A DNA stretch of 56,053 nt from Candidatus Pyrohabitans sp. JdFR-17 (GCA_002011115.2 MTME02000085.1:1-56053); one strand, 5' to 3'. Positions 26,572 through 47,909 are shown, counted from the stretch's first letter. Numbers and translations are program-made. The notes: generated by a model not told the origin, from the letters alone.

Positions 26572-29500
26572 CTAAGCTGCCTTTTTCCTACTGAATATCA
26601 GAAGTGGTATGAGGGATATAAGAACGATGACGCTAGGACCACAGATCCCCTTCGTATTTTCATCTGGCACTTGAACCTCAGATTCCTCATGCTCCGTAGC
26701 TGTTGTTTTTTCATCTATTTCAACATATACTTCCGACTTATTTTCTACACCATCAGAGACACTTTCTTCCCCACCTTCAGTATTTGACCCCATAGAAAAA
26801 CCAAACATCGGGAAGTCATCAAATTTTCTTTCTTTTTTCAACTCTACGCCTTCAGTATTCCCCTCAACATAACCCTCTTCACCCGTCACAACAAAGTAGC
26901 TGAAGGTTTCAAATTCCGCCTCGTAGATATAGTGTTCACCATCCACACCAATATTTTTGGCTGGGAATTCTTCCCATTTGGCGGCATGGTAATGGAGCAG
27001 CTTCACTTTGTTGGGATTGATATTGTTCTCCTTCAACCACTCCTTTTTCACCTTAAACTTTATTTTAGCTTTCTCAATCGCCTTCGTGCTGAAATCTGCT
27101 TTAAATACCAAATATACCCTATCAGCCGGTGGCTTTTCAATATATTCTGGAAGTTCATCCAGAAATTCTATGATAATTTTCGCATAGTACAGGTCAACCT
27201 TAGGTTTTACTGCTATCTCCTCGATATCCTGTATTTCAATCATTATAAAAGCGTACTTACCTTTATTTGCTTCTTTTATCACCTTCTCTATTCTGTTTTT
27301 ATTCGTTTTACCTCCGCCGCCTCCTGCAGGAGGTATCTGCTTTTCCTCTATCAAGGTGGTTACTGTAATGTTGCTCCAGTTACCCCTGTTTCCTGCAGCA
27401 TCGAAGGTGCGGAGGGAGATATTGTAAGCTGTGGCTGGAAGGAGTCCCTTAATATTAAAGGATGTAAATGTGTAGTTAAGAGTTGCATTGGTCTCGTCGT
27501 TAACCCATATCTCTACACCTGCAAAATCAACATCCTCAGGATTCGTCCAGTTGAGGAAAATGCTTCTTACTCCCGAGGTGGCTGTGAGATTGCTCACCCT
27601 ACCTGGAGGGGTGGTGTCCACGCTGAAGTAAACTTCGGCAGAGGCAAGGTTGCCGGCTCTATCCAGGGCATAAACCACAATATGGTTTATTCCTTCCTGC
27701 GCGGTTATTGTGCTGTTGGGAGTTAAGGTGACATTGCCGGCGTTGTTGAGGCTGTAGGTCCAGGCGGAAATGCCCTCATTCGCAGTGACGTTTAGAGGTA
27801 TCTCTTTCGCGGTATAGGTTCTATTCAGAGGGGAGGTTATATTTACCACAGGCGGAGTTATATCGAGGGCTGCGTAAGTTCTCTTTACTGTCTCTACATT
27901 GCCGGCATTGTCTACACTGTAGTACTCAATGGTGTGGTTCCCTTCTGTGGTTATATTAACTGTTGTACCGTTTACCCAGCTTTGATTGTCCAGCTTATAG
28001 CTTGTGTAGGCGACACCGCTGAGATTATCCTGTGCGATGAGGCTGATCACAAACTCTGCGTTCTGCCAGCCTGCAGGAGAGTTGTCCGTGGTGATGGGTG
28101 GAGCTGTGTCCACATAGAAGTAAACCTGAGCACGGCCGAATACACCTGAAGTTGAGTTCGCCCATATTTCAAGGAGGTAATAGCCATCGCCGGAGGTTAT
28201 GGTTATGTTTTCCGGAGGGATGAAACTGTTGTTGGTGCTCCCATTTATGCTGTACAGCCAGATATGCACAGCCCTGTCCGAGGTTGCGTTCAGGAGGATT
28301 GTTGTTTCACTGTAGTAGGTGTTGTTCTCAGGAGAGATTATGGTTATATTGGGCGGATTAGGGTCTAAAACCGTAATAATTACCTCATTGCTGCTCACCC
28401 AGCCTACGGAGTCGTTGAACTCTATGGTGTAGTTGTATGCACCAAGCTGGGAGGTATCCACAGGTGCGGTAACATTGCTCGCATTACTGCTACTCCAAGG
28501 CTGCCAGTCCTCAATAACGCTACCATTTCTGAGCACTCTGTAGTAGCCACCCGCCACATTGTCGTACAGAGTCCAGGTGAGGTTGTAGGAAGAGTTTATG
28601 TCAACTTTTGTGTTCCCTGTCGAGGGAACCGCATAGGGCGGGGTGGTGTCCACTGTGAAATATACCCCTGAGGAGTTAGTATTGCCAGCAATGTCAGTGG
28701 CATAGATAATAAGATGGTTAAGTCCCTCGGAGGCATTTATGTTTGTAGGAAGAGTAACGTTCTGGTTTTCTCCATCGTTCAGGGATATACGCCAGGTTAC
28801 AGCCTCGCTGGCTGTGGCGTTGACGGTGATATTTCTGGTAGTGTACATGGTGCTGTTTTTCGGTGAGATTACCTGCATCGCTGGCGGAATTAGATCGACG
28901 GTGAAGTAGACACTCGAGTAGACCCAGTAACCTGCAACGTCATGAGCATAAACCTCCAGGGTATTGTTGCCCTCCACAACGCCATCCGTAGAATTTATTG
29001 TTGTGTTCGGAGTAAAGGTGACGTTGCCAGCGCTGTTCAGGTTATAAATCCATGCGGTTATCCTCTTATCTGAGGTTACATTAAGCGGTAGTTCTGTTGA
29101 ATTGTAGACTGCGTTGTTCGCTGGAGAAATTATGTAAATCACAGCGGGGGTTGCATTTATGTTGAGCCCTCTAACCTCAGAGAAACCAGTATTGTTACTC
29201 GCATCCTTCGCCTCGATGTAGTAGGAGGCATAACCCTGGGGAAAATCTGCCGGGCATAGCTGGTAGGTGCAGTAGGAGATATAACTACCCTGAGATAGAT
29301 TCATGGCAAATGCCTGCCCATCGAGGTAAAGAGTGCACCCCGCTATCGTCTCATTATAGGAGGTTACAGAAGCGTTGAGCAGTGTGCAGGAGTTTAACTC
29401 ATAGTTGGGGTGTAGATTTATGGAGAATATAACAGGAGGAGAGGTCTCGCGCTGCTTTATCAGCGGACCATAGTCGCCGCCGTTTTGTATATAGGTGTAT

Positions 29501-30501
29501 TCTGTTCCCTTAGTTGCATTGTATGGCAAGTTTGTGTCACCGATGCCGTCTACGTTGGTATCGCTGCCTTCATATGGAAGCAGTCCACCCCAGTAGTTGC
29601 CCTTTATGTAATTTCCACCAACGATATTTGTACCAGGAGTTTTTGAAATGTTGTAGTGGTTGTAGCCTCCCTGATCATCCTTACACGGGGGGCTGCCACA
29701 ATCAAAGTAGTTGTTGTAGAAAAGATTACCGGAGGAGGCATCATCGAAAAAGATACAGTAGGAAACTCTCCTAATGAAGTTGCCGGTAATTGTATTGCCA
29801 GTTGAAGAGGCGTTTATGTAGATGGCATAACCAGAATCGTATCCATCAACTTTGTCATTTACCACTTCATAAATATTATTGTTTATTATATTGGAATTAG
29901 AAACATTATAAAGTGCGATATATTTATTTGTATAAAGATTGGATGTAGTGCTTTCTTGAATAAAAGAGGAATCCTCCACAGTTATGTTGAAAGAATAGTG
30001 AATCTCAATGGCCGCTTTTTCAGCCTCGTAAACATATACCCCTCTTATGGTTACATTCTCAGAGGTATCGATATAGAAACCATGCTGAAAGCGGTCGCCT
30101 ATCGTGACATTCTCTATGGTGATGTTTTTTCCCCTAATCTGGAAAGCCTTTGCATTTCCTGGAGATGACGTAATTACAGTGAGATTTTTTACTTCTACAC
30201 CATTTGAATTTATGTTGATGTTATTAGAGTAGCTGACTTTAGCCAGATCAACAACAACAGTTCCCTGCTTGTGGCCATAGATTTTCAGGGATTTGTTTAT
30301 GACGATTCCGTAATTAACAGGGTAAGTCCCTGGACACACAACAATAGTATCGCCAGGGGAAGAAGAAATTACTGCCTGCTCTAGGGAAGAAACACTCAAA
30401 TCAGCAGAAACACAACCTGAGGACTGATTTACCTGAATAACCTGTCCACTGTCCGCGCCTACCAGCAGAAGGTACAGGAATAGTATAAAATATTTCTTCA
30501 T
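26572..30501 (-). CDS. Large surface glycoprotein: NosD beta-helix, Ig-like repeats, FN3, PGF-pre-PGF-like domain, CGP-CTERM anchor
   Basis: N.SKT.G.NIVGG..I.GNYW; repeated D..PP...I.SP.N..Y modules; F.V...W.....NP..V.L.....W...FS.F; ends ICGP + hydrophobic helix + RKK. Confidence 0.88.
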   Translation of the reverse strand: MKKYFILFLYLLLVGADSGQVIQVNQSSGCVSADLSVSSLEQAVISSSPGDTIVVCPGTYPVNYGIVINKSLKIYGHKQGTVVVDLAKVSYSNNININSNGVEVKNLTVITSSPGNAKAFQIRGKNITIENVTIGDRFQHGFYIDTSENVTIRGVYVYEAEKAAIEIHYSFNITVEDSSFIQESTTSNLYTNKYIALYNVSNSNIINNNIYEVVNDKVDGYDSGYAIYINASSTGNTITGNFIRRVSYCIFFDDASSGNLFYNNYFDCGSPPCKDDQGGYNHYNISKTPGTNIVGGNYIKGNYWGGLLPYEGSDTNVDGIGDTNLPYNATKGTEYTYIQNGGDYGPLIKQRETSPPVIFSINLHPNYELNSCTLLNASVTSYNETIAGCTLYLDGQAFAMNLSQGSYISYCTYQLCPADFPQGYASYYIEAKDASNNTGFSEVRGLNINATPAVIYIISPANNAVYNSTELPLNVTSDKRITAWIYNLNSAGNVTFTPNTTINSTDGVVEGNNTLEVYAHDVAGYWVYSSVYFTVDLIPPAMQVISPKNSTMYTTRNITVNATASEAVTWRISLNDGENQNVTLPTNINASEGLNHLIIYATDIAGNTNSSGVYFTVDTTPPYAVPSTGNTKVDINSSYNLTWTLYDNVAGGYYRVLRNGSVIEDWQPWSSSNASNVTAPVDTSQLGAYNYTIEFNDSVGWVSSNEVIITVLDPNPPNITIISPENNTYYSETTILLNATSDRAVHIWLYSINGSTNNSFIPPENITITSGDGYYLLEIWANSTSGVFGRAQVYFYVDTAPPITTDNSPAGWQNAEFVISLIAQDNLSGVAYTSYKLDNQSWVNGTTVNITTEGNHTIEYYSVDNAGNVETVKRTYAALDITPPVVNITSPLNRTYTAKEIPLNVTANEGISAWTYSLNNAGNVTLTPNSTITAQEGINHIVVYALDRAGNLASAEVYFSVDTTPPGRVSNLTATSGVRSIFLNWTNPEDVDFAGVEIWVNDETNATLNYTFTSFNIKGLLPATAYNISLRTFDAAGNRGNWSNITVTTLIEEKQIPPAGGGGGKTNKNRIEKVIKEANKGKYAFIMIEIQDIEEIAVKPKVDLYYAKIIIEFLDELPEYIEKPPADRVYLVFKADFSTKAIEKAKIKFKVKKEWLKENNINPNKVKLLHYHAAKWEEFPAKNIGVDGEHYIYEAEFETFSYFVVTGEEGYVEGNTEGVELKKERKFDDFPMFGFSMGSNTEGGEESVSDGVENKSEVYVEIDEKTTATEHEESEVQVPDENTKGICGPSVIVLISLIPLLIFSRKKAA

Positions 30502-37267: not shown

Positions 37268-40200
37268 TTACTGGATACCGTGTATGAAGGCATCCATTCC
37301 ATCGTTTGTGCTGCCTCCGTAGTGGCATGTTGCACACTTATCGTCAGTGTAAGGTGCGGTGAGTGTAGAGTGGTTTCCTGTACCCGGTGTGATAACAGGC
37401 GGCTTCTTGCTGTAAAATCTCGTGAAGTAATAGTTGACCGTTAAGGTGTAGTCAGAGTCACTTGTAATATGACAGGAGCCACACCATGTTGTGGTGCCTG
37501 ACCCTATTGTGGCGTTGATTCTCGCCGGGTAGTCTCCGCTCCTGATACCCGCTAACCGAACCGCATAACCGATGGGCAGATTCTCACTGTGGTCTGAGGT
37601 GTGGCAGAATATGCAGGCAGTGTAGTTGTCGCTCCAGTAGGTTGTGCTTCCGTCAGCGGAGATGCCATTGCCGTGGCCTGAGAAGGGCACTTTGACCACA
37701 TTGGTGTAGCCATAGCTGCTCATTAAAGCGTCGAGGGTGCTGTTTACGTGGCAGGTGTAGCACTTTGCATAGCTTTTCTGCTGCTTGGCTATCTTTGCAG
37801 GCACGTATGCCCCACTTTCGGTAAGGTAGGTGACATTGTGCACCTTGTTGGTTGTTCCAACGTGGCAGAGCTTACAGCCCATTCCGTTAACGTGAGTTCT
37901 TCCGCCGGTTATGGGTATGTGGCACGTTCTGCACTCACTATCAAAGCTTGTGTAGCTGGGTATTGTAAGGCTCTGGGTGTGGAGGTTATTGACACTATTA
38001 TGACATTTGAAGCATGGTGCATAGTATCGCCTCGACCTTGCGCTGTGGTCTGGCTGCACCGTCCTGTTGGTATTGGTGAAGAACTGGTTGTAAGCACTGC
38101 TGGTGGTACCACTCTTGTGCTGCTGATGGCAGTAGCCACAGTAGCTCTCATCTTTCTTGGCTTTAAGGTCATCTCTCTTCATCACGTAGTGCGAGGCATA
38201 ACTCTTGTTGTTGTCCACGCTTGTGTAGTGAGAAGGCATCTCATAGTCGAGATTGCTAACCTGATTCTCTCCAAGACTGTGGCAATTGTAGCACTCAGCG
38301 TTGGTCACCTTGACATCCTCACCGTTCTTGTAGTGCTCCTTGACCAGCGGCGCACCAAAGGCTCCGGTAGTGTGGCAGTCTTCGCAGAGCTTGGGTGTGT
38401 TGTAGCCTACAGGATGATCCCCTGAAGGTGGTTCCAGACCATCCTTAGTGTGGCATGCCCAGCACTTCTTATTCTCCGCAGGCAGAGTGGTTACTACGTT
38501 GCTGTTGAGATTCCTGTGAGCCGCATTCGGATCCTCTGTGGCATTGAAGTCAACATCCCACGCCAGTTCGCCCAGATTGTGACAGCTAATGCAGTTGTTG
38601 CCTCCCGAAACACCTTCAGCAACCCTGTGTACAAACTCACGAGTTGTGGTGGAGGTACCTATCAGCCCACCGTGGCATTTGCGGCACTCGCTGTCACTGT
38701 AGCTTGTGTTTGAGATATACCCCCTGCTCAAGTGGTCCCTGTAAGCCGTACCGTCGGTGGCGTTGCTCAAATCCCAGCCGGAGAGATTTACAACCTTAGG
38801 AGAGAAGGCTGAGCCGTTATAGTTCGCTGCTTGGGAGAAGTGACAGCCTGCGCACCAGCTGGTTGAGCTCAGATTTGAGGTGTTCCTAGTAAGCGAATCC
38901 TCTATTAGTGAGACATTGCCCAGAGCATTTGCCCTGTGTCTGCTATCGCCATGGCAGAAAGCACATGCACTCTGCTCGTCGCCTGGCGTCCAGTAGGTCT
39001 GCGATGTCTTATTCCACTTCTGTCCAGCTATTGGGTCATCGCTATGATTTAATGGCGGAATCTGGGAGGCATTCGCAAACTTTCCTCCAAGATTACTACG
39101 ATGGCAGGTGGTGCAGCTAGCGGGTGATGTGGTACCCCATACCTCATATTTACCCGAGCTGTTGAGATATTTAATTCCGTGGATATCCCTTACATTTACG
39201 GTGTTTATATCCCCTGTGTGGCAGTTAACACAATAAACAGTTTCATTCTTTGCTCTGTTTCCTGCGGAATTATGGAGTTGCTTATTGGTGTGGCAGGTCA
39301 TACAGAGTGTGTTGTTTGTGGGTGTGAGAACGGGCTTAGTCAAGCTTTCATCGTGCATTCTGCCAGAACCGTGGCAATCTGCGCACCCAGGGCCACCCAC
39401 GTTGTCGGTGTGGTTAAGCATGTTGTTGTGCGTTGCATCCTGCATTACCAGGTCGAAGCTACTGTTCTGCTGATGGCAGTATACGCAGTTCGCTACACCG
39501 GAGTTGTTGAGCACCGGCGAGATCTTACCATAGTGGTAGGCGCTAAGATTTCCACCATACACACCGTCGCCGTCAGCATCAAAGCTACCGTTGTCAGGGT
39601 CATTAACATTGATTATCCTCAGCTCGGATATGTTTGGATTCTGGTGGCAGTTGAGGCAGCTCTTCAAAGCCGTGTTCGCTCCTGTGGTTGCTACAAGCTC
39701 ACTGCCATTTAGGTAGTGCTCACTCACCATAGGAGCACCATAAGCACCAGCCTTAACTCCTGTGCTGAGGTGACAGTCGGTACATACAAAGGGCGTCTTC
39801 TGCTTGTCGGGATGACCGTCAGGCGGCTGACCGTTACTGCTGTGACAGGCGTAGCAGGGCTCATTCACTTCATAACCTGTGGTGGAGGTGGTGTTTATGT
39901 TGCCGTGCACACCATTCTGTAGAGCCGTGAAGTTGATGTGCTTCGGAGCGGAGCCGCCTAAATCGTGGCAACTCCTGCAGTCAGGGCCTGCTGTTTTGTG
40001 TTTACCATCAATGTTTGCTCCGGGTTGATTCATATCCACACTGTGTACCGTTAGAGCTTTAACACCATACGCATTTGAGCTGCTGTGACAATCTGCACAG
40101 TTAAGAGGAGTAACCCCATCCTGCTGATAGAAGTCCGAAGAACTGTGACATTTCACACACTCGCTGGGTGTCATATTATCGTTTCCATATCCCATGCCGA

Positions 40201-42037
40201 AGGGTATGAGCTTTGTATCGTTGGTGGAGTGGATTGAGGCGTTGGGGTAATAGGTGGTGCCGTTGTATACTATGCTGACATTGTTGTGACAGGAAAGGCA
40301 AGTGAGATTTCCACCACCGGTAACGTTGGCGGCATGTACCTGAGTTACATTCCTGGCTCCTGTGGCGGAGCCATCGTGACATCCTGCCTGGTTACATGAA
40401 GGCGTGGAAGCGGTTATGGTATTATCGTGGGGTGAGCTAACCCCGTGGCAGTTCTGGCAGGTCTTGTTGGCGTTGCCATGGTAAATTGCATTGTTGCTAT
40501 CCCAGCTTGGCACAGGCTGGGCAGCTGCTGACTTTCCACCAACACCTGTAGAGGTGTGGCAGTCCGAGCAGGCAGGGATACGAATATCATGACCGCTAGC
40601 CGAGCCAGTAGCGGTAACGTGGCAGTCCACACAACTTTTGGTTACTGTCTGTCCATGCTGTATATTGCCAACATTCCTCGGCGCTGGAGCACCTGCACCG
40701 TGACAGGAGTTGTCGCCACTTCCGCAGGTGACGCCATAACCAGAACCGCCCACATCCTGAATGGTTACATTGTGACCGTGACCGTGGCAGTAGCGGCAGT
40801 CAACACCTGCGTGGGCATAGGTGGTGTTAACCGTCGGGCTTATTTTAAGTCCTGTTGTATGACACTCGTAGCAGTCCCTGACTTCTGGTACTCCGTTGGC
40901 TGCGCTCAAAGTCGTGCCTCCAACTTTGTGGCAGGTAGCGCAGTTTGTGGCAGGGTCAATGGTTCTGTGATTGAAGTTCGCCGCTGTTACAGTGTTGTGG
41001 CAGTCTGTACAGGCAGGAGAGTCTGTACGGGTGAAATTCGCACCAATTATATTTTTTGCCATCCAGCTCTGAGAAATTCCGTGACAACCCCTATTATAGT
41101 TTCCATATCTGCTTGGTTCACTGCTATTGTATGCTTTATCTGGAGTACCACCCTTAACTATGGAGTAGTCTGGTTGCACACCATAAGCACATCCTGCAAA
41201 AGTAGGTGGTCCTCTGTTGTCTGAAGGACCATACTTGAGAGACTCCGTTTCAAAGATACCATCCCCATCATTATCCTTCCACTCACTGCCACCCGGGGTT
41301 GCAATATATCCCAAACCTTCAATAACACCTGTGTTAGACTCACCCATTATAATGTTGTTTGGATCTCCCCAATATGTTACACCATCGTCCGCACCATAGG
41401 GAAATCTGAAAGGTCCCAAATCTGTGCCAACTGCATCCCCTGCATTCTGGTCAGAAGTTCCATTTAAAATTGTAGGACTTATACCGGTACCACCAGTATT
41501 ACTCCCTGTGATAGGGCTAATCAAATAATCCCAATCTAATGGATAGTCATATTCATCATTCAGTGAATACCAGAGGGCAGAAGCATTGTTTGTATCAAAA
41601 CCCCTGTATATCTCCATTATTGTTCCTTTGTTTTTTGGTGGTGCATCTGGACCTGCTTTCCAGAGAGGCCAATTACCATCGCCGTGCTGCATGTGCACCC
41701 ATCTTGGGAAAGTTGAAGCAGGGACTCTACCTGAACCGGGATGAGGTACGCCTGAGCCTGCAAATGGTCCCTGATTGTTGTAAACCTTATAATCTTGGAT
41801 ACGGTCATACACGCCATCTGGACCGGGACCATTTTTACCACTCATAAGCCCACCAAAAGTCGCATTAATCATATGACATGAACCTGTGGTGCCATCCCCC
41901 TGGGAGCAGCTTAACTGAGGGTTCTCCTCAATCTCAAGGTTGGTGGGTGCCATGATATCATACTTACCAGAGGCGAAGGTAAGGCTTATTGCGATCATTC
42001 CGATGAACAGAATGAGCAGAATGTCACTCTTCTCCAT
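37268..42037 (-). CDS. Giant exported multiheme cytochrome c (34 CxxCH plus atypical motifs)
   Basis: Signal peptide; 34 CxxCH counted by hand; Cx4CH, Cx6CH, Cx9CH; many NxS/T sequons. Confidence 0.95.
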   Translation of the reverse strand: MEKSDILLILFIGMIAISLTFASGKYDIMAPTNLEIEENPQLSCSQGDGTTGSCHMINATFGGLMSGKNGPGPDGVYDRIQDYKVYNNQGPFAGSGVPHPGSGRVPASTFPRWVHMQHGDGNWPLWKAGPDAPPKNKGTIMEIYRGFDTNNASALWYSLNDEYDYPLDWDYLISPITGSNTGGTGISPTILNGTSDQNAGDAVGTDLGPFRFPYGADDGVTYWGDPNNIIMGESNTGVIEGLGYIATPGGSEWKDNDGDGIFETESLKYGPSDNRGPPTFAGCAYGVQPDYSIVKGGTPDKAYNSSEPSRYGNYNRGCHGISQSWMAKNIIGANFTRTDSPACTDCHNTVTAANFNHRTIDPATNCATCHKVGGTTLSAANGVPEVRDCYECHTTGLKISPTVNTTYAHAGVDCRYCHGHGHNVTIQDVGGSGYGVTCGSGDNSCHGAGAPAPRNVGNIQHGQTVTKSCVDCHVTATGSASGHDIRIPACSDCHTSTGVGGKSAAAQPVPSWDSNNAIYHGNANKTCQNCHGVSSPHDNTITASTPSCNQAGCHDGSATGARNVTQVHAANVTGGGNLTCLSCHNNVSIVYNGTTYYPNASIHSTNDTKLIPFGMGYGNDNMTPSECVKCHSSSDFYQQDGVTPLNCADCHSSSNAYGVKALTVHSVDMNQPGANIDGKHKTAGPDCRSCHDLGGSAPKHINFTALQNGVHGNINTTSTTGYEVNEPCYACHSSNGQPPDGHPDKQKTPFVCTDCHLSTGVKAGAYGAPMVSEHYLNGSELVATTGANTALKSCLNCHQNPNISELRIINVNDPDNGSFDADGDGVYGGNLSAYHYGKISPVLNNSGVANCVYCHQQNSSFDLVMQDATHNNMLNHTDNVGGPGCADCHGSGRMHDESLTKPVLTPTNNTLCMTCHTNKQLHNSAGNRAKNETVYCVNCHTGDINTVNVRDIHGIKYLNSSGKYEVWGTTSPASCTTCHRSNLGGKFANASQIPPLNHSDDPIAGQKWNKTSQTYWTPGDEQSACAFCHGDSRHRANALGNVSLIEDSLTRNTSNLSSTSWCAGCHFSQAANYNGSAFSPKVVNLSGWDLSNATDGTAYRDHLSRGYISNTSYSDSECRKCHGGLIGTSTTTREFVHRVAEGVSGGNNCISCHNLGELAWDVDFNATEDPNAAHRNLNSNVVTTLPAENKKCWACHTKDGLEPPSGDHPVGYNTPKLCEDCHTTGAFGAPLVKEHYKNGEDVKVTNAECYNCHSLGENQVSNLDYEMPSHYTSVDNNKSYASHYVMKRDDLKAKKDESYCGYCHQQHKSGTTSSAYNQFFTNTNRTVQPDHSARSRRYYAPCFKCHNSVNNLHTQSLTIPSYTSFDSECRTCHIPITGGRTHVNGMGCKLCHVGTTNKVHNVTYLTESGAYVPAKIAKQQKSYAKCYTCHVNSTLDALMSSYGYTNVVKVPFSGHGNGISADGSTTYWSDNYTACIFCHTSDHSENLPIGYAVRLAGIRSGDYPARINATIGSGTTTWCGSCHITSDSDYTLTVNYYFTRFYSKKPPVITPGTGNHSTLTAPYTDDKCATCHYGGSTNDGMDAFIHGIQ
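37271..39990 (-). repeat. Tandem duplication of a 12-heme module (about 450 aa) within the giant cytochrome
   Basis: Hemes 11-22 parallel hemes 23-34: H.N.N...C.ACH...PP..HP...TP..C.DCH...GAP.V.EHY.NG, YW...AC.FCH, WC..CH, F.H. Confidence 0.8.
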
Positions 42038-43246: not shown

Positions 43247-44470
43247 TTAAGTTTCCCTAGAAGAGGTGTGCTTCGCCATCACCTTCGCAAGCTTCGCCGC
43301 AGCCTTTGTGGTCTCCCCATTTCTATCCAAGTGATGGTTGAGCTCGGTTATCTCCTGAAGCACCACCTTAATATTCCTCTTCTCAGACTCTTTATAAATC
43401 AGCTTGAGAGCGTAGAGTACCTCCTCTAGGGTGGCGCCGCGCTTGTCTATGGCTGCGTAAGCCTCCTCTATGGGCATGCCCGTAGAAAACAGGTAGCTGT
43501 TTGCAACCATGCACACCAGTGGCGCAACCTCATTGTATCTGAAGCCGTGGTAGGTGTTCTTTTCAAGAACATCTACATCTATGGAAATAATAATTGAATC
43601 CACTCCGCGCCTTTCAAGCTCATCGAAAAACCTCTTAACATTCTCCTTTGTTTTCTCCTTCGATTTCAGCTCATCCAGGGTGGTTACGTATATATCAGAG
43701 CCCACAAACGGAAGCTCCCTCTTAACAATAACAGTATGCGTCGGGGGCAGATTCTTTGGCCTCAGCCTCACCCCAAGAATTAAAGTATAGTTCACATCAC
43801 CCTCCACCACAGCGGTGCCCACCACCCAGGAATTCTTAATTTCATAGAAGTTGCCATGACTGATTGTCTCATTCTCAGACGTGTATGTGTCTGCATGGGC
43901 ATCAAAAATTATCGCTCCTACTTGCCCGCCTGAGATGTTCTTCGCCGCCCTGGCGAGAGCTATGTAGCTGGCGTGGTGCTCAGCTATGACAACACTTGGC
44001 CTCCTCTCGGCAATTAGCTTGGCAAGCGCCCTGAACCTCGGATCTGCAAGGTACCTGTACTTCTGTATCTCCCCCTCAATGGCATCACGGGTCACATTCT
44101 GCGGATTTCCCCACTCAGGCACCAGCGCAGCGAACGCGGGCCAGCTGCCGTAGTAAAGCTCCCTCTGGGTGAAGCCCTCCATCACCACTACCCTCTCATA
44201 CCTCCAGCCGAGAAGCTCTGCCACCGCATCGGGTGCCTCGCGGGTGTAGTTAACAATAAGCACCTCGTCGAGGTTTGGAAGCCTTCCGCTCTCTACAACC
44301 TTGTAAGCTCGAAGGTTACCACCAGCGGCGACGTCACACCATTCGGGCATGCTGTATATTATACCCAGGGCAGTGTAATCTTGGCCCCGAAGGCAGCCAG
44401 AAAAAATTATCAAAATAACCAGCAAGGCCGGAGCAATTTTACCCATTGTACCCTCTGCCATACTACTCAC
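43247..44470 (-). CDS. Lipoprotein with arginase/ureohydrolase-fold metal motifs
   Basis: Lipobox FSGC (ATG 44446 is an alternative start); AEHH, FDAHAD, SHG, SIDVDVL, EITELN. Confidence 0.78.
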   Translation of the reverse strand: MSSMAEGTMGKIAPALLVILIIFSGCLRGQDYTALGIIYSMPEWCDVAAGGNLRAYKVVESGRLPNLDEVLIVNYTREAPDAVAELLGWRYERVVVMEGFTQRELYYGSWPAFAALVPEWGNPQNVTRDAIEGEIQKYRYLADPRFRALAKLIAERRPSVVIAEHHASYIALARAAKNISGGQVGAIIFDAHADTYTSENETISHGNFYEIKNSWVVGTAVVEGDVNYTLILGVRLRPKNLPPTHTVIVKRELPFVGSDIYVTTLDELKSKEKTKENVKRFFDELERRGVDSIIISIDVDVLEKNTYHGFRYNEVAPLVCMVANSYLFSTGMPIEEAYAAIDKRGATLEEVLYALKLIYKESEKRNIKVVLQEITELNHHLDRNGETTKAAAKLAKVMAKHTSSRET

Positions 44471-45864
44471 CTGAGTAAAATAGTAAGATATATTATAGTA
44501 AAGAGGAATCCGAAGACGTAAACAATGGCTGCGACATCCCTGTTTTCATAGCCCAAATGAAGAGAGGCTGCAATTAAAGCTGCCATACCAAGAGCAAAAA
44601 ACTCTCTCTCACCCAGTAAGGCCATGCCATACGTTGCTGGGAGAATCAGCGCAAGTGCATAACCCTTACCAAAGAGGTTGCTTAAGACCAGAGAAGACAA
44701 CATAACCACCAGGAGAACGGCAGCAGGGCCACTGAAGGGCAGCGAAGATGCGAGGTTGAGAAGAAGGTTCCCAAGGTAAAATCCCGCCCCGCTCTCGTGG
44801 AGAAGTATCATTATAGCAAGGAGAAAGGCAAATGGAATAGCTTTAGAATCCACCTCCACCTCCTTCTTCATCGCCAGAAGCGCTATAGCGAGAATAAGGG
44901 AGGCAATTCCATAACCCAAAAATGAGCCAGCAAGCAGAACAAAACCTAAGGGAAGAGCTGCTCTTGCGTTGAAGGAGATGTTCAAACTTTCCTTAAAATT
45001 CAACGCTCTTGATACAAGGAGGTAAACCAAAAGAAGCGCTATAGCTAGAGGCAGAGAAATGGAGAGCCACCTTATTAGCGCTGCCTCATCTAAAAGCTCC
45101 ACCAGGAACAGGTTGTAAAAGCTGGAAATTGGCAGCAGAAAAGCGCTCGCAGCAAGCGCTGCCGTATACCTGCCCCTCACATACCCTCTGCACTTCTCTT
45201 CTGTAAATACCAAGCCAGAGAGAAAGGCTGAGGTGAAGCTCGAAGCTTCCTCAACGCTTCGCTTATAGTTTATTGAGCTGAGTACAAAGCTGTAGGCCAA
45301 AAAGAAGACCAGCGGATCTCTAAAAACTGCCCTGCTTAAATCCGCGTATCCAAAACTCAATAGAAGGGCGAGGAGACCAAAAGCTCCTGCTAGATGCTCT
45401 GAGATGAGGAAGAGCGCCGCTGATATGGTGAGAATCTGAAGCAGCCTCTTATACTCCCACGTCAGGGCGTAGCCCTCTTCCACCTCAATCTTCTTCCCGC
45501 CAGCCACAACCTCCTCAAAATCAGAGGTTACAAGCTTCTTCCCCTCTTTGAAATAGAACACACCTCTGCCATCCTCAGTAACCACCTGCCCAAGACCCTG
45601 ACGCACACCAACAAGGGAAACCTTTACCCCAAGGCGTTTTTCAGGAGCCTCGACCTGCGTCATGCCCAGCATGAGCTTCTCGCCAGAGAGTGTTGTCAGC
45701 CTTTCTCCTTCGTGGGTGTACACTTCGCCGCCTCTGGCAACGAGAGGCGCGCCCTGATAGAGGAGCACTTTCCCTTCAGAGGTGGTAATCGCCGAAGGTA
45801 TTGCGCTCTGGGTGGAGATAAAAATAAAAGCAATAAGAGCAAGCGCAGCGATAGCTCGCTTCAT
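44467..45864 (-). CDS. Membrane protein with an exported N-terminal domain, possibly transporter-like
   Basis: Signal peptide, about 120-aa soluble beta-rich domain, about 10 TM helices; overlaps both neighbours. Confidence 0.7.
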   Translation of the reverse strand: MKRAIAALALIAFIFISTQSAIPSAITTSEGKVLLYQGAPLVARGGEVYTHEGERLTTLSGEKLMLGMTQVEAPEKRLGVKVSLVGVRQGLGQVVTEDGRGVFYFKEGKKLVTSDFEEVVAGGKKIEVEEGYALTWEYKRLLQILTISAALFLISEHLAGAFGLLALLLSFGYADLSRAVFRDPLVFFLAYSFVLSSINYKRSVEEASSFTSAFLSGLVFTEEKCRGYVRGRYTAALAASAFLLPISSFYNLFLVELLDEAALIRWLSISLPLAIALLLVYLLVSRALNFKESLNISFNARAALPLGFVLLAGSFLGYGIASLILAIALLAMKKEVEVDSKAIPFAFLLAIMILLHESGAGFYLGNLLLNLASSLPFSGPAAVLLVVMLSSLVLSNLFGKGYALALILPATYGMALLGEREFFALGMAALIAASLHLGYENRDVAAIVYVFGFLFTIIYLTILLR

Positions 45865-47774
45865 CCTCCGCCTTCACTCCTTCCAGAGCCGGGTGCGGTT
45901 TGAGTTCCCTCCTTAAATGACAGCCTTGCAAAGAGATTGGTGTTCTCATACCTCCCCAGGCGCCACAGGTACACGTTGTCATAGATTAGGTCGCTGGTAA
46001 GGTCGTGTATCACCTGCGCCTTCGATGGTCTCAGACCGAAGGCAGAGAGCCTGGCAATGAGGGGAATCCTGTTTATGCTCCTGCCGCGATACTGGCTCTT
46101 CCTCGCCTCAAAGAATTCCTCGGCGGTCATACCCCGGGAAACCCTCGAGTAAGCCTCCAGCGTAAGCAGCTTATCATAAAATCCTGCGGTGACCTCGCTC
46201 GCTCGGGCTTCTGAGGTCAGCGCCCTTATATTGTAGAGGAGCATAAAGCTTCTGGTGTATTCCTTGGCAAGGTCGACTGCAACCTCGAAGGAGAGGTTGG
46301 TAATAAGCTCCTCCTCCAGAGCTTTCCCACGCTGTATGCTCTCCGAGAGGTTCTGCAGGAAGTAGTTCAGCGGCGGGGAGGAGTTCTCAGCAATCTGCAT
46401 CACCCTGCTCTCATCAAATCCCATATAAATCGGCTCCATCTCCACCAGCTCTCTGAGAAAGCCTGCCTTCATCAACTGGAAAGCCTGCCTCTGACTACCC
46501 ACCAGCCTGCCAGTGGTCTTATCCACCAGGAAAACATAACCCGTGGGCTTGCCCTCTGCGTCGACGATGTCAAACAGGTAAACCTCGTGATTATTTGAGA
46601 GGTAAGGTCCCTTCACAACCACGCCTTCACCTCTGAGGAGGAGCGGAAAGCCCGAGAGTATCACCCTCGCCTCCTCTTCGGTTATATTCTTCCCTTCTAT
46701 TGTTATCTTTACATCCTTCACCTCTTCCAGGGATATTTTTTGAGAGATAAGCTCCTCCGGGCTTGGTATTTGCACAGCGTAGGCTGAGGAGAGCAGAATA
46801 AGGGTGGTAATAACCAGCGTGGTCCTTCTCCTCAGGAGCAGGAGGGCAGGAATAAGCAGAATAAATGTGGGGCCACACACGGGCTTGGCGCCCATCCTTG
46901 CATACGCTTTAGCTATGGCATCACTGTAATCGCTGTTCAGCATACTCTCCCTGAGCTTAATCTCCTTCTCCAGCTCCTTGGCGTTCTCATTAACCAGCTC
47001 CACCTCTTTGAGAATGTCCTCCTTCCTTATAACAATCTCCCATTTCTCCCTTATCGTCGTGCCCGGCGGGTACTCCTCAAGCTCCCCAGCAAGGTCAACA
47101 AGGTTAATACCATAAGTATAATAGTCGTCCAGCAGCTTGTTGTATGCGCTTATTAATCGAGAGAAACCCTCATAAGAGTAGTTACCTTCAACAGAAGACC
47201 TCTCCACGCTTACTCTGAAGTGAGGCTCCACCACAGAGTACTCAAAGCGAAGGGCATTATCTGGGTAGAGGATGGAAGAGGTAATCTCAGAGATCTCAGC
47301 CACGTCCTGCATGAGCCTTGTGTAGCTCTCCAACACCTTCTCCAGCTTTTCTCTCTCCACGTCTTCAAGCGTCGCAAAGCTTGCGAAGTTCCTCACATTC
47401 TGCACTTCAAACTCGGAGGCAAGGGGGATTAAGGAGGTGTTGCCCACTGCATAGAAGAGGGGATCATCTATTGTTAAGAGCTTCAAATCCTTTGTGGCGA
47501 GCACCTTACGAATTATCTCCCGATCCTTCACAAACTTCCCCTGCGAAGGGTCGTAAACCAGCGATCCCCTGTTCTCAGCAAGAAACATGTAGTCGAGCAC
47601 ATAGTAGGGCTTGCCCTCAACGTAAAAGGGGCCGTCCACCATAATAGCCTCGCCCTTAGAGTACTTCTCGCCTGCACTGCGGATATCGTCGAAGCTCAGG
47701 GAAAACGCTGAGGGCAGGAGCACTAGCAGAACAAGCAATGATATCAGTGTTGGAAAAACCTTCTTTATATTCAT
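45861..47774 (-). CDS. Exported protein with two homologous halves joined by CGP-CTERM + second signal peptide
   Basis: GEAIMVDGPFY vs GEGVVVKGPYL repeat; central VCGPTFILLIPALLLLRRRTTLVITTLILLSSAYA. Confidence 0.82.
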   Translation of the reverse strand: MNIKKVFPTLISLLVLLVLLPSAFSLSFDDIRSAGEKYSKGEAIMVDGPFYVEGKPYYVLDYMFLAENRGSLVYDPSQGKFVKDREIIRKVLATKDLKLLTIDDPLFYAVGNTSLIPLASEFEVQNVRNFASFATLEDVEREKLEKVLESYTRLMQDVAEISEITSSILYPDNALRFEYSVVEPHFRVSVERSSVEGNYSYEGFSRLISAYNKLLDDYYTYGINLVDLAGELEEYPPGTTIREKWEIVIRKEDILKEVELVNENAKELEKEIKLRESMLNSDYSDAIAKAYARMGAKPVCGPTFILLIPALLLLRRRTTLVITTLILLSSAYAVQIPSPEELISQKISLEEVKDVKITIEGKNITEEEARVILSGFPLLLRGEGVVVKGPYLSNNHEVYLFDIVDAEGKPTGYVFLVDKTTGRLVGSQRQAFQLMKAGFLRELVEMEPIYMGFDESRVMQIAENSSPPLNYFLQNLSESIQRGKALEEELITNLSFEVAVDLAKEYTRSFMLLYNIRALTSEARASEVTAGFYDKLLTLEAYSRVSRGMTAEEFFEARKSQYRGRSINRIPLIARLSAFGLRPSKAQVIHDLTSDLIYDNVYLWRLGRYENTNLFARLSFKEGTQTAPGSGRSEGGG

Positions 47775-47909
47775 TCCAACTGTCCCTTTAATCCATTTTT
47801 TGCAAACCTGCATGCGCCATTCCATCATTATGCCTCGTCCTTAGGATTCCAGTTATTGAAATGTATTTTATTTTATTTAAATTTTTATCCAAATCTCAGC
47901 TTAACAAAC

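Follow-up and report, generated by a model that had tools for sequence, protein, structure and literature searches.

C-terminal sorting signals of the LPXTG, PEP-, PGF- and CGP-CTERM types are defined by their position at the end of a protein. A 56,053-nucleotide stretch of Candidatus Pyrohabitans sp. JdFR-17 (GCA_002011115.2 MTME02000085.1:1-56053; hereafter the window) raises the question of what such a signal might do in the middle of one. On the minus strand, at 45861..47774, a single open reading frame encodes a protein of 637 amino acids in which a Cys-Gly-Pro (CGP) motif, a short hydrophobic segment and an arginine cluster lie between two halves, here called A and B, and lead directly into a second segment that resembles a signal peptide. 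A first-pass annotation, made from the sequence alone, had read this as a polyprotein giving rise to an anchored subunit and a secreted paralog.

The fused reading frame and its junction

The gene, its parts and one tail for comparison are given below in window coordinates, with a slash at each predicted cut and the basis of each assignment in brackets.

45861..47774, minus: whole gene, 637 codons and a stop codon at 45861-45863 (frame listing and translation)
47700..47774, minus: N-terminal Sec-type signal peptide, residues 1-25, predicted cut AFS/LS (translation; a home-made -3/-1 rule, described below, lists LPSAFS/LSFD)
46881..47699, minus: ectodomain A, residues 26-298, opening with a beta domain of about 50 amino acids and continuing in long helices (AlphaFold2 predicted local distance difference test, pLDDT, mostly >90; end-to-end alignment with single-unit PGF-tailed homologues)
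46824..46880, minus: putative internal CGP-type tripartite sorting signal, residues 299-317, consisting of V-CGP, 12 hydrophobic residues and RRR (TIGR04288, 17.4/16.8 bits; K-x-[VIL]-CGP-[TS] context of eight C-terminal tails)
46776..46823, minus: second hydrophobic segment, resembling a signal peptide, residues 318-333, with S-A-Y-A as c-region and a predicted cut at A333/V334 (translation; -3/-1 rule; pLDDT <50 for 299-333)
45864..46775, minus: ectodomain B, residues 334-637, opening with a conserved (I/V)P..EL motif, then the homologue of A's beta domain and a helical bundle, predicted to bind A (profiles, alignment, AlphaFold2)
26575..26652, minus: for comparison, the genuine C-terminal CGP tail KGICGPSVIVLISLIPLLIFSRKKAA of the 1309-amino-acid surface protein at 26572..30501 (translation; TIGR04288; K-G-x-C-G-P pattern)

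The frame is open over 45861..47828 (minus strand), which gives 655 amino acids counted from its first ATG and 637 (protein P0001, beginning MNIKK) from the ATG at 47774. The start at 47774 leads into a canonical signal peptide of the Sec type, read from the translation as MNIKKVFPTLISLLVLLVLLPSAFS/LS, and the upstream ATG at 47828 is a possible alternative; P0002, 97% identical to P0001, is annotated with 654 amino acids. In its middle the 637-residue translation reads KPV-CGP-TFILLIPALLLL-RRR-TTLVITTLILLSSAYA-VQIP, in exact agreement with the junction letters of the first-pass annotation. By residue, the order is V299-C300-G301-P302, 12 hydrophobic residues (303-314), R315-R317, and T318 to A333 ending in A-Y-A, followed by V334-Q-I-P. 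The flank upstream of C300 is ARMGAKPV, and the chain continues after A333 as VQIPSPEE.

Logan contigs from four public runs span the junction, with zero inserted or deleted letters across the whole gene. Two of these runs are possibly the source of the window; the other two (X3 and X4) are independent, and their contigs carry 38 and 37 substitutions relative to the window gene. Among 61 related genomes, 12 had a match, and all full-length matches are free of stops in one frame at identities from 78% to 32%; the homologous frames in these genomes are uninterrupted and align over their full length in 14 of 14 cases. A collection of 5.8 billion proteins contained 50 near-length relatives (identity 33-97%, coverage 86-100% bar one partial), of which 49 have 575-697 amino acids and one, labelled partial by its source, has 422. 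All of them are fused. An erroneous join of two neighbouring genes, through a mistake in sequencing or assembly or through a frameshift, is refuted by the indel-free contigs, the stop-free related frames and the fused homologues (49 of the 50 full-length), and the probability left to it is negligible. A separate translation start for half B was considered as well and rejected: the region from R315 to V334 contains no in-frame ATG, GTG or TTG, and such a start is therefore unavailable, a finding that also speaks against an artefact. One fused frame with an internal CGP junction is thus confirmed, as the first-pass annotation had it, and the stop or indel looked for at the junction is present neither in the contigs of the four runs nor in the related frames.

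The central motif has the make-up of a CGP-CTERM signal. C300-G301-P302 abuts TFILLIPALLLL, and motif, 12 hydrophobic residues and RRR follow one another in the tripartite order of that domain. The motif is also of the type found at protein ends in the same genome. A regular expression for CGP, 9-22 hydrophobic residues and a basic pair, run over the 4044 stop-to-stop frames of at least 100 amino acids in the whole genome, matched six C-terminal tails and one internal site, that of the protein studied here. Searched with a degenerate DNA pattern for K-G-x-C-G-P, the genome yielded eight sites, on contigs C13, C15, C25, C38, C54, C68, C85 (26575-26652 of the window) and C90; all eight are true C-terminal tails in which K-G-[VIL]-C-G-P-[TS] is followed by 14-18 hydrophobic residues, a basic end and a stop. 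The internal context, K-P-V-C-G-P-T, is like the K-x-[VIL]-CGP-[TS] of these eight, and the resemblance reported earlier to the tail of 26572..30501 (minus strand) holds, that gene ending in KGICGPSVIVLISLIPLLIFSRKKAA.

Scored with the CGP-CTERM profile TIGR04288, the internal site reaches 17.4 bits as an excised piece, where the control tail reaches 20.6, and at 16.8 bits it is second of the six matches listed in a genome scan. All six, genuine tails included, fall short of the 21 bits set as the curated cut-off (best 20.5-20.6), and the model was built on Thermococcales. The profile check suggested by the first-pass annotation came out divided, with the site ranking among the genome's matches but lying under the cut-off. 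The Pro-Gly-Phe signature of archaeosortase substrates is absent from the junction, whose motif is CGP. PGF_CTERM matched nothing in the genome at E<=10 (the same search was positive in the controls Haloferax and Methanosarcina), and a search for archaeosortase PF09721 found nothing, a search so insensitive that it was positive in just one of 14 control genomes. Cys300 is the sole cysteine of the 637 residues, and several members of the CGP clade have no cysteine beyond the N-terminal leader other than that of the motif.

In the 51-row family alignment (A1), 50 rows have a first hydrophobic segment, a basic cluster and a second hydrophobic segment; the exception, P0033, has a Ser-rich first segment. 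CGP is present in 22 rows. These rows were chosen as a subset by the motif, which makes their own 22/22 conservation circular; at linker positions 296, 298 and 304 the commonest residue occurs in just 5-7 of them. On a tree from a quick IQ-TREE run with 50 rows, without the partial P0048, midpoint-rooted with the true root not established and the careful search unfinished, CGP occurs in 17 of 19 rows of one clade and in all four rows of a second, and is absent from clades of 13 and 11 rows and from three single rows. Two changes suffice to explain this distribution and every row of the tree is fused, so parsimony favours a gain of CGP after the fusion. With the root unsettled, it looks as though CGP was gained while the signal was already internal.

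Residues 315-333 have the three parts of a signal peptide, namely RRR as a basic n-region, TTLVITTLILL as an h-region and SS-A-Y-A/V with small residues at -3 and -1, although they begin at residue 315 of 637 and not at the N-terminus of the chain. The earlier reading of RRR as the n-region of a second signal peptide with an AYA site is borne out as far as these features go, the cut itself being a prediction. Both junction segments are short, with 16 residues between RRR and A333. Our home-made rule places a cut 2-9 residues past the hydrophobic core where position -3 is A/V/S/T/G/C and position -1 is A/G/S, provided that neither +1 nor -2 is Pro. It lists LSSAYA/VQIP for the junction and finds sites after segment 2 in 42 of 50 members (P0048 unscored), compared with 36 of 50 for the members' own N-terminal signal peptides and 48 of 99 for internal in-to-out hydrophobic segments of the genome (6 of 16 where a hydrophilic stretch follows). 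Among the eight misses, several have plausible sites just beyond the distance window, for example PPTLTA/DNQ and HTSPAA/TLE. The enrichment after segment 2 is thus real but modest in size. The predicted mature start of B, (I/V)-P-x-P-E-E-L, is conserved in the family alignment, with P337 invariant. These comparisons support the view that the middle segment is a C-terminal-type CGP sorting signal placed directly before a signal-peptide-like segment, in an arrangement that is conserved and not accidental.

The fused family and its single-unit relatives

The unnamed two-unit family (P0002-P0060) shares homology over both ectodomains and the central junction, which is found in 50 of 51 aligned rows. 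None of the 50 near-length relatives has a Pfam domain on record, and where the sources give names these are 'hypothetical protein' from Hydrothermarchaeales or Hydrothermarchaeaceae archaea. The distribution is patchy, with members in 11 of the 35 genomes that sample the order in our collection. As to whether homologues are fused or split, a check proposed at the outset, no split pair of genes was found in an exhaustive profile search of 1.84 billion representatives, and a search for short forms returned just two fragments, of 203 and 240 amino acids, from contigs of 3443 and 1690 bases. P0061 (364 amino acids) is a truncated call that retains CGP, both hydrophobic segments and half B. One genome (G031, 62% complete) has three family paralogues (L007/L026, L013/L033 and L017), two with CGP and one without. 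P0039 is named '4-alpha-glucanotransferase' at NCBI; Pfam and NCBIfam searches of its homologue P0001 give this name no support.

The two halves are homologous in part. BLASTP aligned A with B at E 0.002 (19% identity over 83 amino acids), and profile-profile comparison of 14-sequence alignments of each half gave a probability of 97.2% (E 3.5e-11), with the homology confined to an 85-column N-terminal beta domain of each. The claim of two homologous halves is therefore upheld for about 85 residues of each half; beyond them, neither method detected homology.

The most informative relatives for the origin of the junction are proteins with one unit only. Profile search retrieved seven of these, of 259-324 amino acids (P0074, P0076, P0077 and P0079-P0082), which where named come from Methanosarcinales (Methanimicrococcus, Methanolapillus and a Methanosarcinales metagenome-assembled genome). 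All seven open with a signal peptide and share the beta domain, which is followed by a helical region and, at the C-terminus, by a tail of P-G-F, a hydrophobic segment and basic residues; they so present the same succession of signal peptide, beta domain, helical domain and tripartite tail as half A. They differ in being one unit of about 310 amino acids, with the tail at the true C-terminus, PGF instead of CGP, and no second unit. NCBIfam recognised the seven tails weakly, and only P0081 passed a curated cut-off (Heimdall-CTERM, 25.1 versus a cut-off of 24; PGF_CTERM, 23.8 versus 24.5); its JGI name is 'PGF-CTERM protein'.

Aligned to half A with hhalign, the single-unit profile spans the whole unit, signal peptide and tail included, over 283 columns (probability 99.5%, E 1.6e-22); in the final columns PGFGF lies opposite CGPTF. 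Against half B it covers 131 columns (probability 97.7%, E 2.5e-12). Since the PGF tail falls on the internal CGP and the next segment stands at the place of B's signal peptide, the fused gene can be read as signal peptide, A and sorting signal, followed by signal peptide and B. The alignments strongly support the inference that the internal CGP occupies the place of the genuine C-terminal sorting signal of the single-unit relatives, and likewise that two secreted units were fused, A keeping its tail signal and B its signal peptide. With PGF in the Methanosarcinales and CGP in this genome, the type of motif follows the host.

Judged by its sequence, P0067 (223 amino acids, from a Hydrothermarchaeota archaeon) is a single-unit form within the same phylum; it comprises the helical part of half A alone, and its true C-terminus is a hydrophobic segment and RRYRS. 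Two distant relatives from the search of representatives, P0068 (585 amino acids) and P0072 (611 amino acids), have no hydrophobic segments in the middle; what connects their A-like part to the B-like part is a soluble linker that contains Cys, and the two-domain unit thus exists also as a plain single chain.

Possible fates of the junction

AlphaFold2, given the 51-row alignment, modelled the protein with a mean pLDDT of 87.4 and a predicted template modelling score (pTM) of 0.85. Values of pLDDT below 50 are confined to residues 20-24, 299-333 and 625-637. The junction does not form a packed helical pair in this model, and DSSP assigns helix there to residues 323-326 only. Modelled as separate chains with alignments, A (27-299) and B (334-637) gave an interface score (ipSAE, interaction prediction score from aligned errors) of 0.89 in three of three runs, against 0.47 for the best control. 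The interface has about 280 contacts, with at least 87% contact agreement among runs and a partner pLDDT of at least 82. In calibration, 58 of 80 solved complexes came up to the ipSAE mark, as did two of 110 mismatched pairs. No similar solved complex was found, so a remembered known structure is an unlikely source of the score. The predictions support a single tight complex of the A and B ectodomains, and with tight binding the expected product would be an anchored heterodimer and not a free secreted paralogue. On the monomer pTM and the separate-chain scores, the 'secreted paralog' of the first-pass annotation is unlikely.

Searches for a known family or fold returned little. For the whole protein, Pfam gave no family at E<=10 and NCBIfam a chance row only (SstD, 13.1 bits). 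In fold searches run on the full-length model, Foldseek had no match in the PDB at E<=0.001, the ESM Atlas gave no usable match, and VIA-align over 48,161 chains found only generic four-helix bundles at residues ~437-550, the best being the McpZ sensing domain (Z 9.1, rmsd (root-mean-square deviation) 3.7, 105 residues), which is under the tool's stated noise level for helical models. The family profile compared with PDB sequences reached at best E 0.019, to DUF4465.

The interpretation that we prefer, and to which we give about an even chance, is that the precursor is cut twice. The N-terminal signal peptide would start the export of A; the CGP segment would stop transfer, with RRR on the cytoplasmic side; and segment 2 would restart export, now of B. 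Signal peptidase I would cut after A-Y-A333, Cys300 would be lipid-modified, and an intramembrane protease of the CPBP/Rce1 type would remove the remaining tail of ~33 residues. Lipid-anchored A would then hold B non-covalently at the surface as a 1:1 heterodimer. The processing proposed for CGP-CTERM proteins is likewise lipidation of the Cys followed by cleavage by a CPBP/Rce1-like protease (10.1101/2023.06.07.544157). The arguments that we count for processing, which is plausible, are the host-type motif, the sole cysteine Cys300, the apparent gain of CGP after the fusion, the -3/-1 pattern behind segment 2, the short segments and the pLDDT below 50 at 299-333; HVO_0405 of Haloferax volcanii, described below, serves as a precedent. 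A more tentative and broader proposal, which we place somewhat below even, is that of a conserved archaeal polyprotein, cut by signal peptidase I and a CPBP-type protease into a lipid-anchored 1:1 heterodimer, in which CGP was acquired after the fusion while already internal.

The first-pass annotation had called CGP-CTERM archaeosortase-associated. The preprint 10.1101/2023.06.07.544157, the sole account of the CGP system known to us, instead predicts as the enzyme a CPBP/Rce1-type protease, MrtA, which corrects that assignment, and calls the domain exclusive to Thermococcales. Two CPBP proteins (82 and 74.5 bits) are candidate sorting enzymes in the genome that contains the window (G000), given here by contig.

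G000:C28:11679-12356 (L021:1120-1797): CPBP/Rce1-like protease, candidate CGP sorting enzyme (PF02517)
G000:C26:7880-8167 (L022): CPBP/Rce1-like protease, candidate CGP sorting enzyme (PF02517)

Full-length relatives of the C28 protein occur in 11 of the 61 related genomes (G000-G005, G007, G009, G011, G019 and G027), and most genomes with such a relative also carry KGxCGP tails. The match to tail counts is imperfect, as G022, G020 and G031 have KGxCGP tails and no full-length C28 relative. Tails number eight in G000, ten in G001 and seven each in G019 and G022; at least one hit of the pattern was found in 28 of the 61 genomes, and the reversed control pattern had three hits in all. Where the family member of a genome has CGP, the tail counts are 8, 10, 3, 0, 1, 7, 0 and 4 (G000, G001, G009, G013, G017, G019, G021 and G031), and where it lacks CGP they are 0, 0, 1 and 1 (G018, G026, G025 and G043). 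This co-occurrence is suggestive only, coming from a small sample of kin genomes and a pattern that misses tails without K-G. CGP-type C-terminal tails are thus common in an order outside the Thermococcales, one that is probably hydrothermarchaeal.

Several observations weigh against the double cut. The signal is not C-terminal, with 320 residues after the basic cluster, and its CGP-to-RRR distance is 12 residues versus 14-18 in the genuine tails. Residues 270-299, before Cys300, contain three Ser and no Thr, and there is no Ser/Thr-rich linker as in the CGP proteins of Thermococcales, in which the 30 residues before the motif are 26% Thr and 15% Ser (10.1101/2023.06.07.544157). The two-segment arrangement is present without CGP in 29 of 51 members, and inside the CGP clade P0010 has YGP and P0011 has YGL, so the cysteine is dispensable for the family. 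The site is under the TIGR04288 cut-off. In a genome that is 83% complete, the MrtA equivalog (NF040590) was not found (best 13.9 bits versus a cut-off of 200), and both CPBP proteins are generic. As for the -3/-1 rule, it is a crude one that 48% of control segments already satisfy, and it was applied to family members that are kin and not independent. The tree is a quick version and effectively unrooted. P0068 and P0072 join their halves by a soluble linker, and a covalent linkage of the halves is therefore tolerated.

The closest rival is that the chain stays whole, the relic signals forming a helical hairpin as a two-pass anchor with both ectodomains outside and RRR inside; CGP might then persist, for instance, because the cysteine is lipidated but nothing is cut, because the motif caps a helix, or simply by common descent. 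We regard this as a serious possibility, if a distinctly less than even one. It explains the 29 members without CGP and the two Cys-less members of the CGP clade with no extra assumptions, and the two segments themselves are there in 50 of 51 members regardless of CGP. The sub-threshold profile score, the failure to find an MrtA equivalog and the occurrence of the -3/-1 pattern in 48 of 99 control segments also favour it, and since the halves pack together in any case, tethering them carries no cost. Set against it are the length of the segments, short for membrane helices at ~16 residues each and with two prolines in the first, and the AlphaFold2 model, which shows no packed hairpin and has pLDDT below 50 there. 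A hairpin also leaves aside that the motif copies the host's own tail context with the only cysteine of the protein, and that 42 of 50 members retain the c-region pattern although their identity falls to ~33%. In P0033 and P0055 a Ser-rich or amphipathic stretch replaces the first hydrophobic segment and the second is kept (PAYS/QEA and PSVYS/QEA), a pattern that a two-helix hairpin can hardly accommodate.

Partial processing, with only one of the two cuts, is improbable in our estimate. Signal peptidase might free B and leave the CGP segment as the ordinary C-terminal helix of A, which is the likely state in the CGP-less relatives; or the CGP cut might free a lipidated A, with B still anchored by segment 2. 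The CGP-less clades keep a signal-peptide-like c-region (for example PAMS/IVIP, PALS/QS and AYA/AP), suggesting that the second cut is older and independent of CGP. Against partial processing, either cut is a prediction only, and the -3/-1 rule has the same limits here as for the double cut.

Genomic surroundings, known systems and significance

Downstream of the gene, a membrane protein of 465 amino acids is encoded at 44467-45864 (minus strand), with an overlap of 4 bases between its start and the stop of the gene studied here. This protein has a signal-like start, an outside stretch of ~120 amino acids and ~7 further hydrophobic segments, and belongs to no Pfam family. We dropped it as a conserved partner, because within flanks of 1.5 kb it recurs only beside the gene of the closest relative (L002). 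Farther away, a protein of 1589 amino acids is encoded at 37268-42037 (minus strand). It begins with a signal-like segment, contains 34 CxxCH motifs for haem binding and has domains of the MtrC/MtrF-like, cytochrome c7 and cytochrome c3 types; its sequence marks it as a very large multihaem cytochrome, a type of protein that serves extracellular electron transfer. Between ~24000 and ~38000 the G+C content is 0.40-0.47, versus ~0.51-0.54 elsewhere, and this stretch holds very large surface proteins, including the 1309-amino-acid CGP-tailed one and another of 566 amino acids. Such a stretch may represent an island of surface proteins, either acquired or evolving fast.

The sole internal sorting signal previously known, to our knowledge, is that of a Haloferax fusion. 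HVO_0405 of Haloferax volcanii is described as a two-gene fusion with a central cleavage site that is cut in an ArtA-dependent manner (PMC7157517). Like the protein studied here, it is a fused archaeal protein with a C-terminal-type sorting signal in mid-chain, and its cleavage needs ArtA and HvPssA/HvPssD (PMC7157517). It is described as strain-specific, whereas the present family is conserved, with 50 or more proteins known and members in 11 of 35 genomes of its order. The signal of HVO_0405 is of the PGF type and cut by an archaeosortase; the one studied here is of the CGP type, for which a CPBP protease is predicted. Unlike HVO_0405, the family also has a signal-peptide-like segment after the sorting signal, which should place the second half outside, and its halves are predicted to bind each other.

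With the CGP-CTERM/MrtA system of Thermococcales (TIGR04288, NF040590) the junction shares an invariant Cys-Gly-Pro abutting a short hydrophobic segment and then an Arg-rich cluster, as that system is described. It differs in its host, which is probably of the Hydrothermarchaeales, in tails that score under the curated cut-off, in the NF040590 equivalog that was not found, and in a signal that is internal; the CGP-CTERM account of 10.1101/2023.06.07.544157 describes no internal CGP signal. The layout is also like that of the vertebrate astrotactins 1 and 2, with an N-terminal signal peptide (cleaved or uncleaved), an outside domain, two membrane segments and a large outside domain (10.1101/493858). 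Astrotactins are reported to be cut by signal peptidase after the second segment, with the fragments staying together (10.1101/493858). They differ, as far as that report describes them, in being eukaryotic proteins of the endoplasmic reticulum whose fragments are held by a disulfide and which lack both a lipid anchor and a sorting-signal motif in the first segment.

The second signal has parallels of its own. Internal signal peptides are well known from viral glycoprotein precursors, which host signal peptidase splits at fixed stoichiometry, and the cytochrome b/c1 precursor FbcH of Bradyrhizobium is one product split by signal peptidase at an internal signal. These are viral or respiratory-complex proteins and, unlike the protein studied here, have no sortase-type signal upstream of the internal signal peptide. 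Among the viral examples, the glycoprotein precursors of bunyaviruses are described as having internal signal sequences and being split by host signal peptidase (PMC7926653).

In this family an internal sorting signal has been kept over long evolution, directly before a second export signal. Even if the chain is not cut, the family documents two sorting signals recycled into a membrane hairpin. If the proposed reading is true, the class of enzyme that sorts CGP proteins would read signals that are not C-terminal, and the CGP system would reach well beyond the Thermococcales. A processed precursor could also serve as a reporter for the still uncharacterised CGP pathway, through a size shift from ~70 kDa to ~31 + 34 kDa. 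For the organism, processing would mean a natural archaeal route to a two-subunit surface complex of fixed ratio from one gene.

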